Of a stretch of DNA of 5,548 nt, positions 1 through 5,002 are shown piece by piece. How positions within the stretch are numbered: position 1 is the first letter of the stretch; every line of letters starts with the position of its first letter. Made by a program: the position numbers and the translations under genes. The stretch is taken from the IMG/VR virus record IMGVR_UViG_2529292977_000015; one strand, given 5' to 3'. A model generated the notes under the pieces. The model did no database searches, had not been told where the DNA came from, and worked only from the letters and a program-made list of their open reading frames with translations. The stretch is from a virus. Lineage: Duplodnaviria; Heunggongvirae; Uroviricota; Caudoviricetes.

Positions 1-176
1 GCTCAGGGCGATAAAACGCCAGGTGAATTTATTCAGGTTGTGCAAGTCCCGCCCTTGCGGGTGTGTGGTATGATTTCTCATAGCTACCTCGATACTGTTG
101 CTATCGTTGGTGGTCAGAGGCTGCGAAAGGACGGCAATCCTTTTCAGCCTCGTTTGCATTGAGTGATAAACACTCA

Positions 177-257
177 ACTGGATTCCAGTATAATCACTAA
201 GTGGAATCCACTTCAAGCGTTTTGTTTTGGTCTTTTTCGTGTATACTGGATTCCAGT
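177..257. promoter_or_regulatory. Operator array: three palindromes ACTGGA-T-TCCAGT (177-189), AGTGGA-A-TCCACT (200-212), ACTGGA-T-TCCAGT (245-257), overlapping -10-like hexamers
   Basis: Read directly: 6-1-6 inverted repeats sharing the core TGGAWTCCA, centres at 183, 206 and 251. TATAAT at 189-194 and TATACT at 242-247 on the plus strand. On the minus strand TTGAAG, an 18-nt spacer and TATACT (plus coordinates 192-187) form a divergent promoter candidate with the middle palindrome in its spacer. Confidence 0.45.
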
Positions 258-277
258 AATCACAAAGGGAACCAGAA

Positions 278-457
278 ATGGAAAGAGACCATATCAATAA
301 CAAATCACAGAAATTACAGGCTCGCGCCCCGCATGAAGTTGTTGAGGCTATGGAGCAAGTAAAAGAAACAGGCGAGAGCACTGCGCAATTTATCGTTACA
401 GCCATGCGAGGCGAGATCAAACGCCGCCAGCGCCGCAAGGCCAAAGAAGCGGAATAG
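278..457 (+). CDS. Small ribbon-helix-helix (CopG/Arc/Mnt-like) DNA-binding protein, 59 aa; absent from the supplied ORF track
   Basis: ATG 278 with AAGGGA 7 nt upstream, stop TAG 455-457. Translation MERDHINNKSQKLQARAPHEVVEAMEQVKETGESTAQFIVTAMRGEIKRRQRRKAKEAE shows a strand-helix-helix pattern and a basic tail. It lies directly downstream of the operator array and is followed by an intrinsic terminator. Confidence 0.5.
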   Translation: MERDHINNKSQKLQARAPHEVVEAMEQVKETGESTAQFIVTAMRGEIKRRQRRKAKEAE

Positions 458-545
458 TCCACCAGCAAGCCAGCACACTGATCACATTGCCCACCAGCCA
501 ACAAATCGCTATGATGTTTGGGCTTATGTTTAGTGTTTTCCCATT

Positions 546-577
546 GGCGACCTCTGATCCGGGTCGCCTTTGTTTTG
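546..577 (+). terminator. Rho-independent terminator for the plus-strand RHH transcript
   Basis: 7-bp stem GGCGACC (546-552) pairing GGTCGCC (562-568), 9-nt loop, then TTTGTTTTG. It abuts the stop codon of the convergent Bro-N gene at 578-580. Confidence 0.55.
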
Positions 578-1159
578 TCACTGAATGCGGTTGCCAAAGT
601 AAAACTCAGGCTGATATTCACGTATCAGCCTTTTTTCTTCTTCCTCCAGCTCACGCTTTTTGCGCTTACATGCCTGTAGCTCCCTCCCCTTCTGACTGGC
701 ACTTAACTGATATTGCTCTTTACGGCGAGAAAAGTCCTGTAATGCGCCCCACGGGATACCATAAGCCCCCGTTTTTCTGATTCCTGGTATCACATTCCTG
801 AATACCCAGTTACTGAAACGATGGGCGAACGTGCCAGGAGTAACAGCTTTCCGACTTCTGGCGATCAGCTTGTAAAAACCGGATTCAGAAATGAGGCTAT
901 GATTTGGATTTCCTCGAATACCGTAGCTTAAAGCGACGGTTTTCTTTTCATCCGCATCTAGTGCTTTTAGAGCATCGCGTGAGTTACTTATTTCCAGAGC
1001 AACACAAACATCCTTTGCAACAAACCACGGATCGCCGTTCAGATACACCACGCGAACGTTCACACTATCAAAGCGCAGAACGACCAGATCACGAAAATCA
1101 CAGAATTTTTTTACATGACGTGCGTCACCCTTGCCCGTCACGGCAATATTTTTATTCAT
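578..1159 (-). CDS. Bro-N domain protein (phage antirepressor-like), 193 aa
   Basis: N-terminal motif FRDLVVLRFDSVNVRVVYLNGDPWFVAKDVCVALEISNSRDALKALDADEKK matches the Bro-N signature. C-terminal tail is charged (KRKKRELEEEEKRLIRE). ATG 1159 with GAGGT upstream. Confidence 0.8.
   Translation of the reverse strand: MNKNIAVTGKGDARHVKKFCDFRDLVVLRFDSVNVRVVYLNGDPWFVAKDVCVALEISNSRDALKALDADEKKTVALSYGIRGNPNHSLISESGFYKLIARSRKAVTPGTFAHRFSNWVFRNVIPGIRKTGAYGIPWGALQDFSRRKEQYQLSASQKGRELQACKRKKRELEEEEKRLIREYQPEFYFGNRIQ
608..643 (+). terminator. Second canonical hairpin plus U-tract (terminator-like) lying inside the Bro-N coding 3' end
   Basis: Perfect 9-bp stem AGGCTGATA (608-616) pairing TATCAGCCT (623-631), 6-nt loop, followed by TTTTTCTTCTTCC. 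Confidence 0.45.
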
Positions 1160-1173
1160 TTCTTTTTTACCTC

Positions 1174-1205
1174 ACATACAAAAAACCCCGCATTGCACGC
1201 GGGGT
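1174..1205 (-). terminator. Rho-independent terminator downstream of the AlpA-like gene
   Basis: On the minus strand, stem CCCCGC/GCGGGG (plus 1186-1191 with 1199-1204), 7-nt loop, then TTTTTTGTATGTG. It sits 13 nt after the alpA stop. Confidence 0.6.
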
Positions 1206-1218
1206 ATGAAAGATATTA

Positions 1219-1422
1219 TTAGTGGGGATTGGCCTGTTCTCGTTGTTTATCTAACCATGCTTCTACATCTCTACGGTGCCAGGTATGTCGTCGTCCAATT
1301 CTGAACGGCTGAGGAAAACCATTATTCTCATCTTTCCAGAAATTGATGAATGCACTCATTGCTCCATATCGCAAGATTTTCATTACGTCTTTAGTAAATA
1401 AAATATCTTCATTGGTATTCAT
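1219..1422 (-). CDS. alpA: AlpA-family (excisionase/MerR-like HTH) DNA-binding regulator, 67 aa from the second ATG
   Basis: MNTNEDILFTKDVMKILRYGAMSAFINFWKDENNGFPQPFRIGRRHTWHRRDVEAWLDKQ fits the Phage_AlpA pattern (hydrophobic HTH, FPxP, conserved W, DVEAWL). ATG at 1422 is preceded by GAGGAGG with an 8-nt spacer. The ATG at 1443 listed in the ORF track lacks an SD and overlaps the int stop. Confidence 0.8.
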   Translation of the reverse strand: MNTNEDILFTKDVMKILRYGAMSAFINFWKDENNGFPQPFRIGRRHTWHRRDVEAWLDKQREQANPH

Positions 1423-1435
1423 TTGCTGAACCTCC

Positions 1436-2674
1436 TCAACCATTTACTACTCTTAAACCTTTCATACCACCGGATCTATTAATTACCCCTTTTCTCGCAT
1501 CATCAAAAAAATCACCGACCCATTGCATCATGATCTTACGCTGTTCTAGATAAATAGTTCTATTATAAATATCTCTTATTTTATCACCACTTTTATGCGC
1601 CAATGCAGCCTCGATTACATCGGGGTTAAATCCCTCCTCATTTAAAAGCGTACTCCACATTGAACGAAAACCATGTAACGTTACAATCCCTTTGAACTTA
1701 CTGGCAGCAATTGGGGTCTTGATAGTATTCCTCCCCATAGGCGCATCTTTTGTTCTGGAGGAAAAAAACACATAACGCCCTCTTTTTATTTCCTGCATTG
1801 TTCTGAGGATACTAATAGCCTGTGATGACAAGGGAACAACATGTTCACGATGGCATTTCATTTTATGCGCGGGGATAATCCACAAGCCAGAATCAAAATC
1901 AATCTCTGACCACTCTGCTTTAATCGCCTCACCTGGCCTGACCATTGTCAATATCTGGAATAAAAGTGCATTATGAGCTATTTGATAGGTATGAGGCACA
2001 CTATCCCACCAGCTCAGAAATTCAGGCAATCTTTCAACAGGTAGTGCTGCTAATGATTTATTTTTCTTTCCTGTGAATGCAGTCTTTATCTTAAGTAATG
2101 GATTTGCTTTCAATGCTCCACAATTTACAGCATAATTCATAATTTCATTTAATCTTGATATTAATTTTTTTTGCAACGCATTCTTATCGGATACGGCATC
2201 CAGAGCATTAATAGCTACTGGTGCTGTAATTTTTTCTATACTGTACTTACCAAAGAAAGGAACAAGATATTTGTATACTTCATATTCGATATTATACAGC
2301 GTAGGTTTCCGCAATTCAGATCCCTTTTTAAAAGCGAACCATGCATTAGCAACAGCTTCAAATGTCTGTAGATTTTTTAGTGACATCTCAATTTTACGAT
2401 TTTTCTTCTCCGTCACTGGATCAACTCCACGTGCAATCATTCGCCGAAGTTCATCACGTACTTCCCGTGCTTCCGCGAGTGAGAATTCAGGAAAACGTCC
2501 TATCGTGTATGTCTGCCGTTTCTTCGTTATCGGATGGCTATAACGGAAACGCCACACTTTCCCACCGGCTTTACTCACATTCAGCAATAAACCGAACCCA
2601 TCATAAACGGCATAGTCCTTTTCACGTGGTTTCATCCCCTTAACTTCAGTCACGGTTAATGGCTTTACCGACAT
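1436..2674 (-). CDS. int: Tyrosine-type site-specific integrase, P4/CP4-57-like, 412 aa
   Basis: N-terminal arm-binding-type region (GKVWRFRY...FPEFSLAEAREVRDELRRMIARGVDP). C-terminal catalytic region HGFRSMWST... and AHKSGDKIRDIYNRTIYLEQRKIMMQWVGDF closely resembles the P4 Int C-terminus. GAGGG SD 6 nt before ATG 2674. Confidence 0.93.
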   Translation of the reverse strand: MSVKPLTVTEVKGMKPREKDYAVYDGFGLLLNVSKAGGKVWRFRYSHPITKKRQTYTIGRFPEFSLAEAREVRDELRRMIARGVDPVTEKKNRKIEMSLKNLQTFEAVANAWFAFKKGSELRKPTLYNIEYEVYKYLVPFFGKYSIEKITAPVAINALDAVSDKNALQKKLISRLNEIMNYAVNCGALKANPLLKIKTAFTGKKNKSLAALPVERLPEFLSWWDSVPHTYQIAHNALLFQILTMVRPGEAIKAEWSEIDFDSGLWIIPAHKMKCHREHVVPLSSQAISILRTMQEIKRGRYVFFSSRTKDAPMGRNTIKTPIAASKFKGIVTLHGFRSMWSTLLNEEGFNPDVIEAALAHKSGDKIRDIYNRTIYLEQRKIMMQWVGDFFDDARKGVINRSGGMKGLRVVNG

Positions 2675-2835
2675 CTATCGCCCTCATTTTTTAGTCCGTC
2701 ATGTAGTCCATTCAAGCCAATAACAAGCGATAAACTAACTCATTATCAAGCAAAGAGAGGAAACTCATAAAATCACAACTCATTGAAAAGACTATGAAAC
2801 GACACCAGAACATACAAACAGGTAAGAAATGTACC

Positions 2836-3843
2836 CTACATCCAAAATGACGCAATCCGGGAGTTTCGTGGCGTTCCGGTGATACTGCCGTCCGCCGCCG
2901 CCCGTTCACCTTCACGAAGCCAGATCCCCTGGTTATTCAGTTCGCGTTTCTGCTCAGGGGCAATCAGCCCGCGACAATGCGGACACATCAGACGGGCAGC
3001 CTGACCGGCAGCCACAAAATCCGGGTTATTCCGGTATCCGGTCATGTTATCCATCACCGGCTGAAAATATTCCCCGCAGTGCGGACACGGCCAGTACCAC
3101 CGGCGGCGGTCTCCCCGGTTATACAGTGACAGGATCCCCGTTGTTGGCGGTGCCTCATGTGCGCCACCACAACGCCATTTGGTATCGGTGATATCCCGCC
3201 CCGGTGAACTCTCGACCAGGGTCATCCCCGAGGACATAAAGGTGGTGGTACGCTTTGAGGCCAGCGTGAAGGCATCCCCTTCCCCGTCCACATTTTCAGG
3301 GAAACGGTCATAATCCGTCAGCGCCACACGACGGTAATCCGAAGAGGAAAAGACGGTGATCGACGGCCAGCCAATCTTCAGGAAGGAGCCGTCAAGAAAC
3401 ATTTTATCGTGGACGTTGTTGTCATTACGGGAAGGACTGAGGCGCTTGCTGACCTCCGGACTGTGGCGAAACGTCCTGGAAAGACGCGTTCTGGAATGCT
3501 CACGCGCCTTCGTCTCAGTCATCTGCACCACCAGCATATCCGCCGGATCACAGATGATGCCGTACACAATCCAGCCATCAATCAGCCCTTCGGTTTTCCC
3601 GGTTCGCGCAGGTCCCACAAACACCACCGCGTCATATTCACGGGCTGATAATGTATTAATGGGGTCAATCATATAGGGCGTCAGCGATGACTCCCACGGA
3701 CCGGAAGTATTGGCTCCCCGTGGAACCCGCATATAACGCCTGATGGCTTCCGCTACTGGTAACCGGCTGGGTGGGCGAAACAGCGAGGCCACTTCGCGCC
3801 AGATATCGGATGCGCGGCTATGGCTCTCGTTCACCTGATTCAC
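2836..3843 (-). CDS. Terminase large subunit (lambda GpA family), N-terminal fragment of ~335 aa, truncated and probably a pseudogene
   Basis: Walker A VFVGPARTGKTEG and Cys motifs WPCPHCGEYFQ and MCPHCRG align with lambda gpA. Full-length gpA is about 640 aa. Similarity runs to ...RIASFW, then M and TAG at 2836-2838. GTG start at 3843 overlaps the Nu1 stop. Confidence 0.85.
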   Translation of the reverse strand: MNQVNESHSRASDIWREVASLFRPPSRLPVAEAIRRYMRVPRGANTSGPWESSLTPYMIDPINTLSAREYDAVVFVGPARTGKTEGLIDGWIVYGIICDPADMLVVQMTETKAREHSRTRLSRTFRHSPEVSKRLSPSRNDNNVHDKMFLDGSFLKIGWPSITVFSSSDYRRVALTDYDRFPENVDGEGDAFTLASKRTTTFMSSGMTLVESSPGRDITDTKWRCGGAHEAPPTTGILSLYNRGDRRRWYWPCPHCGEYFQPVMDNMTGYRNNPDFVAAGQAARLMCPHCRGLIAPEQKRELNNQGIWLREGERAAADGSITGTPRNSRIASFWM

Positions 3844-4316
3844 ATATCGGCCTCATCACAACAGTCAATGACTGCCTTTTCCAGTGTGTCGCGGATCTCA
3901 TCAACCACAATCTGTACTTCATTCAGTTGTGATGCAGTCCACCCCCTGTCCCTCTCCAGCCGGTCAGGCCAGGTTTCCAGTACCTGAACTATCGCTTTCA
4001 CCACGACAGAAAAGGACCGCCTGACATCACTGACTGGCACAAGCTGAACAGTTTCATGCTGAAATTTAAGACGCTCGCGCTCGGACTGATACCATGCCTT
4101 ACGAGCGTGAGGATCCATATCCTCATCTTCGGAAGATGGTGGTTTTTCCAGCAACGAAGTTATCAAATCCGTCAGGAGATACAGTTTTTTCTTTTCATTA
4201 CTGCCTGGTGCAAGAGGAACATCCGCCATTCTGGCGGCAACAGTCTGCCGGTGCAGACCTGAAAGGGCTGCCAGTTGATTAATATTTAACTTCATATTTT
4301 TCAGCTCGCCGTCCAT
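3840..4316 (-). CDS. Terminase small subunit, Nu1-like with N-terminal HTH, 158 aa
   Basis: N-terminus MKLNINQLAALSGLHRQTV parallels lambda Nu1 (MEVNKKQLADIFGASIRTIQ). GGAGG SD 7 nt before ATG 4316. Stop overlaps the terL start, in the lambda Nu1-A order. Confidence 0.85.
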   Translation of the reverse strand: MDGELKNMKLNINQLAALSGLHRQTVAARMADVPLAPGSNEKKKLYLLTDLITSLLEKPPSSEDEDMDPHARKAWYQSERERLKFQHETVQLVPVSDVRRSFSVVVKAIVQVLETWPDRLERDRGWTASQLNEVQIVVDEIRDTLEKAVIDCCDEADM

Positions 4317-4405
4317 TTACATCCCTCCACATAAACCGCAGAACAGAAGTGACTCTGTTTTTTTGTAAAGAAATGCCGCCATATAAAGATGTCGAACAAA
4401 AAACA

Positions 4406-4530
4406 ACCACAATCATCATCTTTTTAATACTAACAGCATTAAAAACAACAAGTTACCATCATGATGATGATGACGATAAAATCACAAAAATGCGCCTTTT
4501 TCCGCGCCCGCCCGCCCCGTGTTCAGGCCC
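4406..4530. other. Putative cos region: GC-rich cosN-like core (~4497-4534) and cosB-like inverted ATCATCATC/GATGATGAT repeats (4412-4420, 4463-4471)
   Basis: Minus-strand reading ACGGGGCGGGCGGGCGCGGAAAAAGG resembles the lambda cosN neighbourhood (ACGGGGCGGCGACCTCGCGGGTTTTCG). It lies about 200 nt upstream of the Nu1 start, as in lambda, between the lysis genes and the terminase. Confidence 0.4.
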
Positions 4531-4777
4531 ACCCCACCAGGAGGACCCGCAAAAATGATAATGGTTATCATTTGCAACAAAATCCAGTTTCTTCCACCAT
4601 CGCACCGGACTGGCGACTATGAGGGGACAACACCGCGCTCCGTTAACGCGGTAAACCCCGGTGTGTATCGTTTTTGATTATCCCCGCACACTCGCGCAGA
4701 GGATTCTCCCGGTCGGGCTGCGGTCTCTGTTAATGCAGGAATACGGCGACAATACCGCGCATGAATAATAAGGTCGC

Positions 4778-5002
4778 TCAACACACTGGCTGTAATGCAG
4801 CGGATACCATGCGGCATTTAGCGGCATTCATCGTACACTCAACGGTTAGCTCTTCATTCGTGGCATTCACCTGAAAGGTCCTGGAGTGTAATTGCGTACA
4901 TTTACCACTGAACGAACCTTCAACAAGAACACGACCACGCTGCAAAATACGGAACGGAATTGTTCCCTGAAAAGGCTTTACGGTTACCAATAATTTCTTC
5001 AT
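4778..5002 (-). CDS. Hypothetical protein, 74 aa from the first ATG, directly downstream of Rz
   Basis: ATG at 5002 with GGAGA SD, 23 nt after the Rz stop. MKKLLVTVKPFQGTIPFRILQRGRVLVEGSFSGKC... has ordinary complexity. The ORF track extends it to a TTG at 5020. No family recognised. Confidence 0.4.
   Translation of the reverse strand: MKKLLVTVKPFQGTIPFRILQRGRVLVEGSFSGKCTQLHSRTFQVNATNEELTVECTMNAAKCRMVSAALQPVC

Follow-up and report, generated by a model that had tools for sequence, protein, structure and literature searches.

Gene content and genomic setting of the locus

The window, by which we mean the whole stretch of 5,548 nt that was analysed, carries all of its genes on the minus strand (Table 1). 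The lysis gene Rz and a small ORF are followed by a non-coding stretch of 460 nt, the gene of the small terminase TerS and that of the large terminase TerL, beyond which lie a P4-type integrase, an AlpA-like regulator and a BRO-N protein. The gene context can be summarized as Rz, cos, TerS and gpA-type TerL: a small terminase with a helix-turn-helix (DUF1441, PHROG 141) adjoins the putative cos and is succeeded by a protein with a GpA_ATPase domain, the order that is expected of lambda-like phages. The window shares 98-99.8% identity with chromosomes of E. coli O157:H7 and O103:H2, and at least 80% of it is present in 53 of 5426 complete E. coli genomes.

The 80-aa product of the small ORF matched only the middle of the 291-position profile PHROG 2571, a family of unknown function. 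A stretch of about 250 bp that includes this ORF is missing from O157 strain 272 and similar genomes, in which the match to the window consists of two pieces.

The sequence-only reading of the window had named the small terminase gene Nu1, a name that our searches do not bear out. BLASTP of TerS against lambda Nu1 gave no alignment, and Pfam placed the protein in DUF1441 and not in the Nu1 family; a sequence search against solved structures returned chance matches only. TerS probably works like Nu1, but it is no detectable member of the Nu1 family at the level of sequence.

Table 1. Position of genes and predicted cos elements in the window. Slashes in the cosN sequence mark predicted nicks.
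Feature	Position	Strand	Sequence	Remark
Rz (lysis)	5493-5026	minus		
Small ORF, 80 aa	5020-4778	minus		Between Rz and cos
Outer palindrome	4553-4573	minus	AAATGATAACCATTATCATTT	Upstream of cosQ; 9-3-9, arms AAATGATAA and TTATCATTT
cosQ-like heptamer	4542-4548	minus	GGGTCCT	First G to predicted top-strand nick 31 nt (lambda 30 nt)
cosN, predicted	4502-4520	minus	ACG/GGGCGGGCGGGC/GCGG	Left half and ACG flank as in lambda, LLS, Tritos, Fels-1 and mEp460; predicted 12-nt 5' cohesive end at 4517-4506
I2-like spacer	4477-4501	minus	GAAAAAGGCGCATTTTTGTGATTTTA	A and T tracts about 10 bp apart
R3-like putative TerS site	4461-4476	minus	TCGTCATCATCATCAT	bp 42-57 from the predicted end (lambda R3 bp 50-65)
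I1-like putative IHF site/bend	4437-4457	minus	GGTAACTTGTTGTTTTTAATG	Aligns with lambda I1 TAACTTAATGTTTTTA
R2-like site	4411-4424	plus	AATCATCATCTTTT	Inverted relative to R3
R1-like site	4383-4396	minus	TTCGACATCTTTAT	In the orientation of R3
TerS, small terminase, 158 aa	3840-4316	minus		DUF1441/PHROG 141, N-terminal helix-turn-helix
TerL, large terminase	2836-3843	minus		gpA ATPase domain only, residues 1-335; gene interrupted by embedded satellite

A probable lambda-type cos site upstream of the small terminase gene

The minus-strand stretch 4573-4383 most probably represents a complete lambda-type cohesive-end site, the cos of a lambdoid prophage whose packaging is of the Fels-1/Gifsy/VT1-Sakai type (probability about 0.87). 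Along the minus strand the palindrome is followed by GCGGGTCCTCC, by CACG/GGGCGGGCGGGCGCGG with the predicted nick at the slash, by AAAAAGGCGCATTTTTGTGATTTTA, TCGTCATCATCATCAT and GGTAACTTGTTGTTTTTAATG, and then by AAAAGATGATGATTG and TTTTTGTTCGACATCTTTAT, before the ATG of TerS is reached at bp 202.

For comparison we used 80 viral contigs encoding relatives of TerS (74-100% identity), to which lambda, LLS, Tritos, mEp460, Fels-1 and Gifsy-2 were added as references. Conservation was assessed in 37 distinct upstream sequences from relatives whose TerS is at least 93% identical. Across these 37 sequences cosQ, the flanks of cosN and R2 did not vary at all, and I2, R3 and R1 hardly varied; the right half of cosN, the bases just after R3 and the loop around I1 were variable. 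A scan of positions 4250-4800 for promoters and terminators revealed nothing above chance.

The palindrome upstream of cosQ

The outermost element had been described as a 7-3-7 inverted repeat and counted as an outer part of cosB. The repeat exists, with arms of nine nucleotides, but its place in cosB could not be upheld: it lies upstream of cosQ and is homologous to the lambda palindrome GATGATAATCATTATCA, which occupies the same position relative to cosQ (AATGATAACCATTATCA in the window). It is missing from mEp460 and from both cos copies of the satellite embedded in this prophage, which span cosQ to R1 exactly and include none of the sequence farther upstream; the palindrome is therefore dispensable for a minimal cos.

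The same absences lend some weight to another reading of this one element, as an operator of Fur or another repressor, or a leftover of upstream regulation, with no part in packaging. The 19-bp Fur-box consensus GATAATGATAATCATTATC is matched at 16 of 19 positions at 4557-4575, a score reached in 0 of 200 shuffles, and the lambda homologue (48447-48465; L088 148-166) scores alike, again with 16 of 19 positions and 0 of 200 shuffles. However, the scan of 4250-4800 found no promoter-like site adjoining the palindrome on the minus strand, and our literature search found no paper linking Fur and cosQ. The distance between palindrome and cosQ is, moreover, kept in lambda and in the prophage, which could reflect a role in ending packaging. 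A regulatory origin of the palindrome is possible but doubtful.

cosQ, cosN and the predicted cohesive ends

The heptamer GGGTCCT, invariant across the 37 relatives, corresponds to cosQ, a highly conserved 7-bp site (PMC4669245), and stands at nearly the lambda distance from the predicted nick. Downstream of it, the GC-rich block that had been noticed about 200 nt upstream of the terminase gene reads ACGGGGCGGGCGGGCGCGG on the minus strand (4520-4502), and its first cohesive-end G, at 4517, precedes the ATG of TerS (4316) by 201 nt. The description of this block as similar but not identical to lambda cosN holds: ACG/GGGCGG equals lambda bp -3 to 6, with CG beside the nick, and the right half differs. 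A right half unlike that of lambda has been reported for N15 and Gifsy-1 as well, and natural variation falls in cosN bp 7-12, with bp 1-6 and cosQ conserved (PMC4669245); the suggestion of different cohesive ends agrees with this and is plausible.

Records of related phages agree with the predicted nick. Those of Tritos and LLS start exactly at the aligned GGGCGG, where the LLS record also annotates a 12-nt 5' end, and the cosN block of VT1-Sakai (Sp15) is identical to that of the window. The assembly mEp460_4F5 begins 5 nt before the predicted nick, which, given its collapsed cosN, is suggestive at most. The ends of the mEp460 record were considered as a cos marker and rejected: the record starts at the TerS start codon and was hence linearized arbitrarily.

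The sequence alone does not fix the exact ends, since among relatives the GC block measures 15-17 bp from ACG to the A tract. The interval from ACG to CGCGG is 11 bp in loci of the window type (10 of the 80 related loci), 10 bp in the majority of close relatives (51/80), 11 bp with a T in a further variant (14/80) and 12 bp in mEp460, Tritos, Fels-1 and lambda. Nicks staggered by 12 nt would be flanked by CG on the left, and on the right by GC in the window and by CG in the Stx2_95-type variant; the 11-bp interval thus deprives a 12-nt stagger of its symmetric CG flank here. The left nick and R3 are nevertheless as far apart, to within 1 bp, as in Fels-1 and the Stx2_95 type, since the spacer compensates. 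The cohesive end most likely begins with GGGCGGG.

The G run of cosN differs in length among near-identical phages and as well between the prophage and its embedded satellite. Such polymorphism might mean that terminases of this clade produce ends of other than 12 nt, or that the second nick is measured from cosB regardless of local sequence. We consider either reading unlikely; if one of them were true, close relatives and the satellite would carry mutually incompatible ends.

The G runs of the minus strand cluster at 4502-4548 (GGTGGGGTGGG to GGGGCGGGCGGGC), and the predicted single-stranded end amounts to (GGGC)3, a repeat prone to form G-quadruplexes. Searching the literature for precisely this cosN sequence returned only unrelated papers on G-quadruplexes and eukaryotes, and a G-quadruplex reading of the G runs was set aside as unsupported.

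The interrupted large terminase gene and its embedded satellite

In strain 272 the parts of an intact TerL gene (nt 1-1010 and 999-2124) flank an insert of 10.4 kb with a 12-bp duplication. The insert is a satellite that occupies window positions 1-2845, with the att junction at about 2834-2845, and positions 6417-16833 of the strain 272 locus (L091); it is co-oriented with the late genes. The duplicated sequence is TTGGATGGAGGG, with one mismatch in the window copy. Among the satellite genes are the P4-type integrase, the AlpA-like and BRO-N proteins, an Icd-like protein, a primase, SSB and a fusion of ClpP protease and capsid protein. Published accounts of helper-embedded PICIs, including ones at sites in lambda gene A, match this satellite (PMC10111431).

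Outside the window, the satellite of strain 272 contains two cos copies, each extending from cosQ to R1 (L091, about 7065-7295 and about 9600-9804). One carries R sites of the helper's ATCATCATC type; the other has a degenerate cosQ and the CACCATCACC/GTGTCGA-type sites of the CP-1639/1720a-02 TerS clade. This suggests that the satellite could be packaged by terminases of two specificities. Just one shared 258-bp cos-like segment is mentioned in the searched passages of the PICI report (PMC10111431).

With TerL stopping at residue 335 in the window and a cosN block one G longer than in 51 of the 80 related loci, the site might be taken for a decayed relic at which nothing is cut or packaged. 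This is very unlikely. Its 16-bp cosN block recurs in 10 of the 80 related loci and in VT1-Sakai, a phage with an intact TerL and packaged DNA; intact Stx phages encode a TerS 100% identical to that of the window; and the distance between the left nick and R3 is within 1 bp of that in Fels-1 and the Stx2_95 type. TerL is broken by a precise insertion that is bounded by a 12-bp duplication, as is typical of site-specific reversible integration (PMC10111431). Because the insertion is precise and VT1-Sakai combines the same TerS and 16-bp cosN with an intact TerL and packaged DNA, we regard the site as functional in design, although this copy would need excision of the insert or a terminase acting in trans.

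Putative cosB elements and their correspondence with TerS

Between cosN and TerS, the sequence offers a putative complex cosB composed of R3, an IHF-like site at I1, an inverted R2 and R1. Upstream of it, the I2-like spacer shows one variable column in the 37 relatives and is similar in Fels-1, mEp460, Tritos and LLS; lambda I2 is bent, carries poly-dA and poly-dT tracts and is essential (PMC4856287). The inverted elements that had been reported, ATCATCATC at 4412-4420 and GATGATGAT at 4463-4471, are the arms of a perfect inverted repeat of 9 nt, separated by 42 nt. They sit at the positions of lambda R3 and inverted R2 with the I1 homologue TAACTT..TGTTTTTA between them, which agrees with their interpretation as R sites around an IHF-type bend. 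A third site, R1, had been missed; it became apparent from the comparison with Fels-1.

At 4443-4455, in the interval that separates the two inverted elements, the sequence departs from the IHF consensus at one position; across the whole window the consensus is not enriched (7 matches against 6.6 expected). The core of the I1-like element is conserved in the 37 relatives and its flanks vary. The R3 motif occurs at the matching position in Fels-1 and LLS. In the R2 region the minus-strand sequence AAAAGATGATG is invariant in the 37 relatives, and the R1 block TTTTTGTTCGACATCTTT has one variable column and is kept in the satellite copy cosA.

Of 500 mononucleotide shuffles of positions 4317-4517, 8 contained a perfect inverted repeat with arms of at least 9 nt and a gap of at most 60 nt. 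Chance origin is unlikely from this test, but its support is modest and not decisive, and we therefore relied on the comparison with relatives. Most of both repeat arms is invariant in the 37 relatives, and such conservation is stronger evidence for the repeats than the shuffle test.

The R motif also changes with the wing sequence of TerS across clades. TerS proteins with the wing PLAPGSNEK or PAPGSNSK (window, Fels-1, LLS) accompany ATCATCATC sites, and those with AGGHESNLK (mEp460, CP-1639 type) accompany CATCACCAC/GTGTCGA sites. As TerS shows no detectable sequence similarity to Nu1 or to a solved structure, the assignment of wing and helix follows from sequence pattern alone.

The notion that ATCATCATC and GATGATGAT are a trinucleotide microsatellite with a chance inverted match and no binding role, for which the (ATC)4 run of R3, a relative (L035) that is one unit shorter, as if by slippage, and the moderate shuffle significance might be cited, is highly improbable, given that position and orientation of the elements are kept in Fels-1 and LLS (TerS just 57% and 50% identical), that the bases neighbouring the conserved elements vary, and that the R motif follows the TerS sequence.

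Predicted mode of packaging and significance

According to the lambda model, TerS dimers would occupy R3 and the inverted R2, spanning an IHF-induced bend at I1, with R1 as an accessory site. Bound TerS would anchor the gpA-type TerL, which would then nick the strands of cosN, about 45 bp away, at staggered positions. The expected product is a 5' cohesive end beginning with GGGCGG, most likely the 12-nt GGGCGGGCGGGC. The upstream cosQ would signal nicking at the next cos, and thereby the end of packaging.

Our analysis maps, at the level of sequence, the packaging site of an EHEC prophage group to which Stx1 and Stx2 phages belong, and helps to predict which terminase can package which defective prophages and satellites. 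The general understanding of cos sites is unchanged by it. The site is an ordinary lambda-type cos of an E. coli O157-type prophage, with the architecture known from lambda, Fels-1 and Gifsy phages; the original observation was correct and is unsurprising.

Comparison with known cos systems

The alignment with known cos regions by which the sequence-only reading proposed to be checked came out in its favour: lambda aligns at four points and the layout of Fels-1 matches. The cos of Gifsy-2 is more divergent, contains no GGGCGG string and was unusable for alignment. The four points shared with lambda are the palindrome, cosQ (GGGTCCT), ACG/GGGCGG and I1 (TAACTTAATGTTTTTA in lambda, TAACTTGTTGTTTTTA in the window). 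Both systems have the subsite order cosQ, cosN, I2 and cosB (R3-I1-R2-R1) with R2 inverted, a start codon of the small terminase at a similar place (bp 191 in lambda, bp 202 here) and a gpA-type TerL. They differ in cosN bp 7-12, in the R sites (CGTTTCC in lambda, the unrelated TCATCATC in the window), in the distance of R3, which lies about 8 bp nearer the nick in the window, and in the small terminase itself, which is Nu1 in lambda and a DUF1441 protein in the window.

Fels-1, with a TerS 57% identical to that of the window, presents the series R3 GCATCATCATCATG (ATC repeats), I1-like GTAACTCATTGTTTTAAT, inverted R2 AAAAGATGATGATT and R1 TTCATCATCTT at the same positions as the window. R motif, I1, R1 and TerS wing are as in the window, and I2 is similar; cosN of Fels-1, in contrast, reads GGGCGGCAGCGG followed by CGCGGG, giving the canonical 12 bp between the flanks, whereas the window has 11 bp. 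In LLS, despite the lower TerS identity of 50%, the R elements retain position and orientation. This architecture is known from earlier work: for lambda-like phages including Gifsy-1, which has three R sites, a cosB of the R3-I1-R2-R1 type with inverted R2 and an IHF site was described by Feiss and co-workers (PMC9026076).

Among the closest known systems are VT1-Sakai (Sp15) and the Stx2_95-type Stx-converting phages of EHEC, with 100% identical TerS, 95-98% identity in the cos region and, unlike the window, an intact TerL. The cosN of Stx2_95 and of most relatives is one G shorter than that of the window, and DNase-resistant Sp15 DNA has been detected in particles (PMC2669165).
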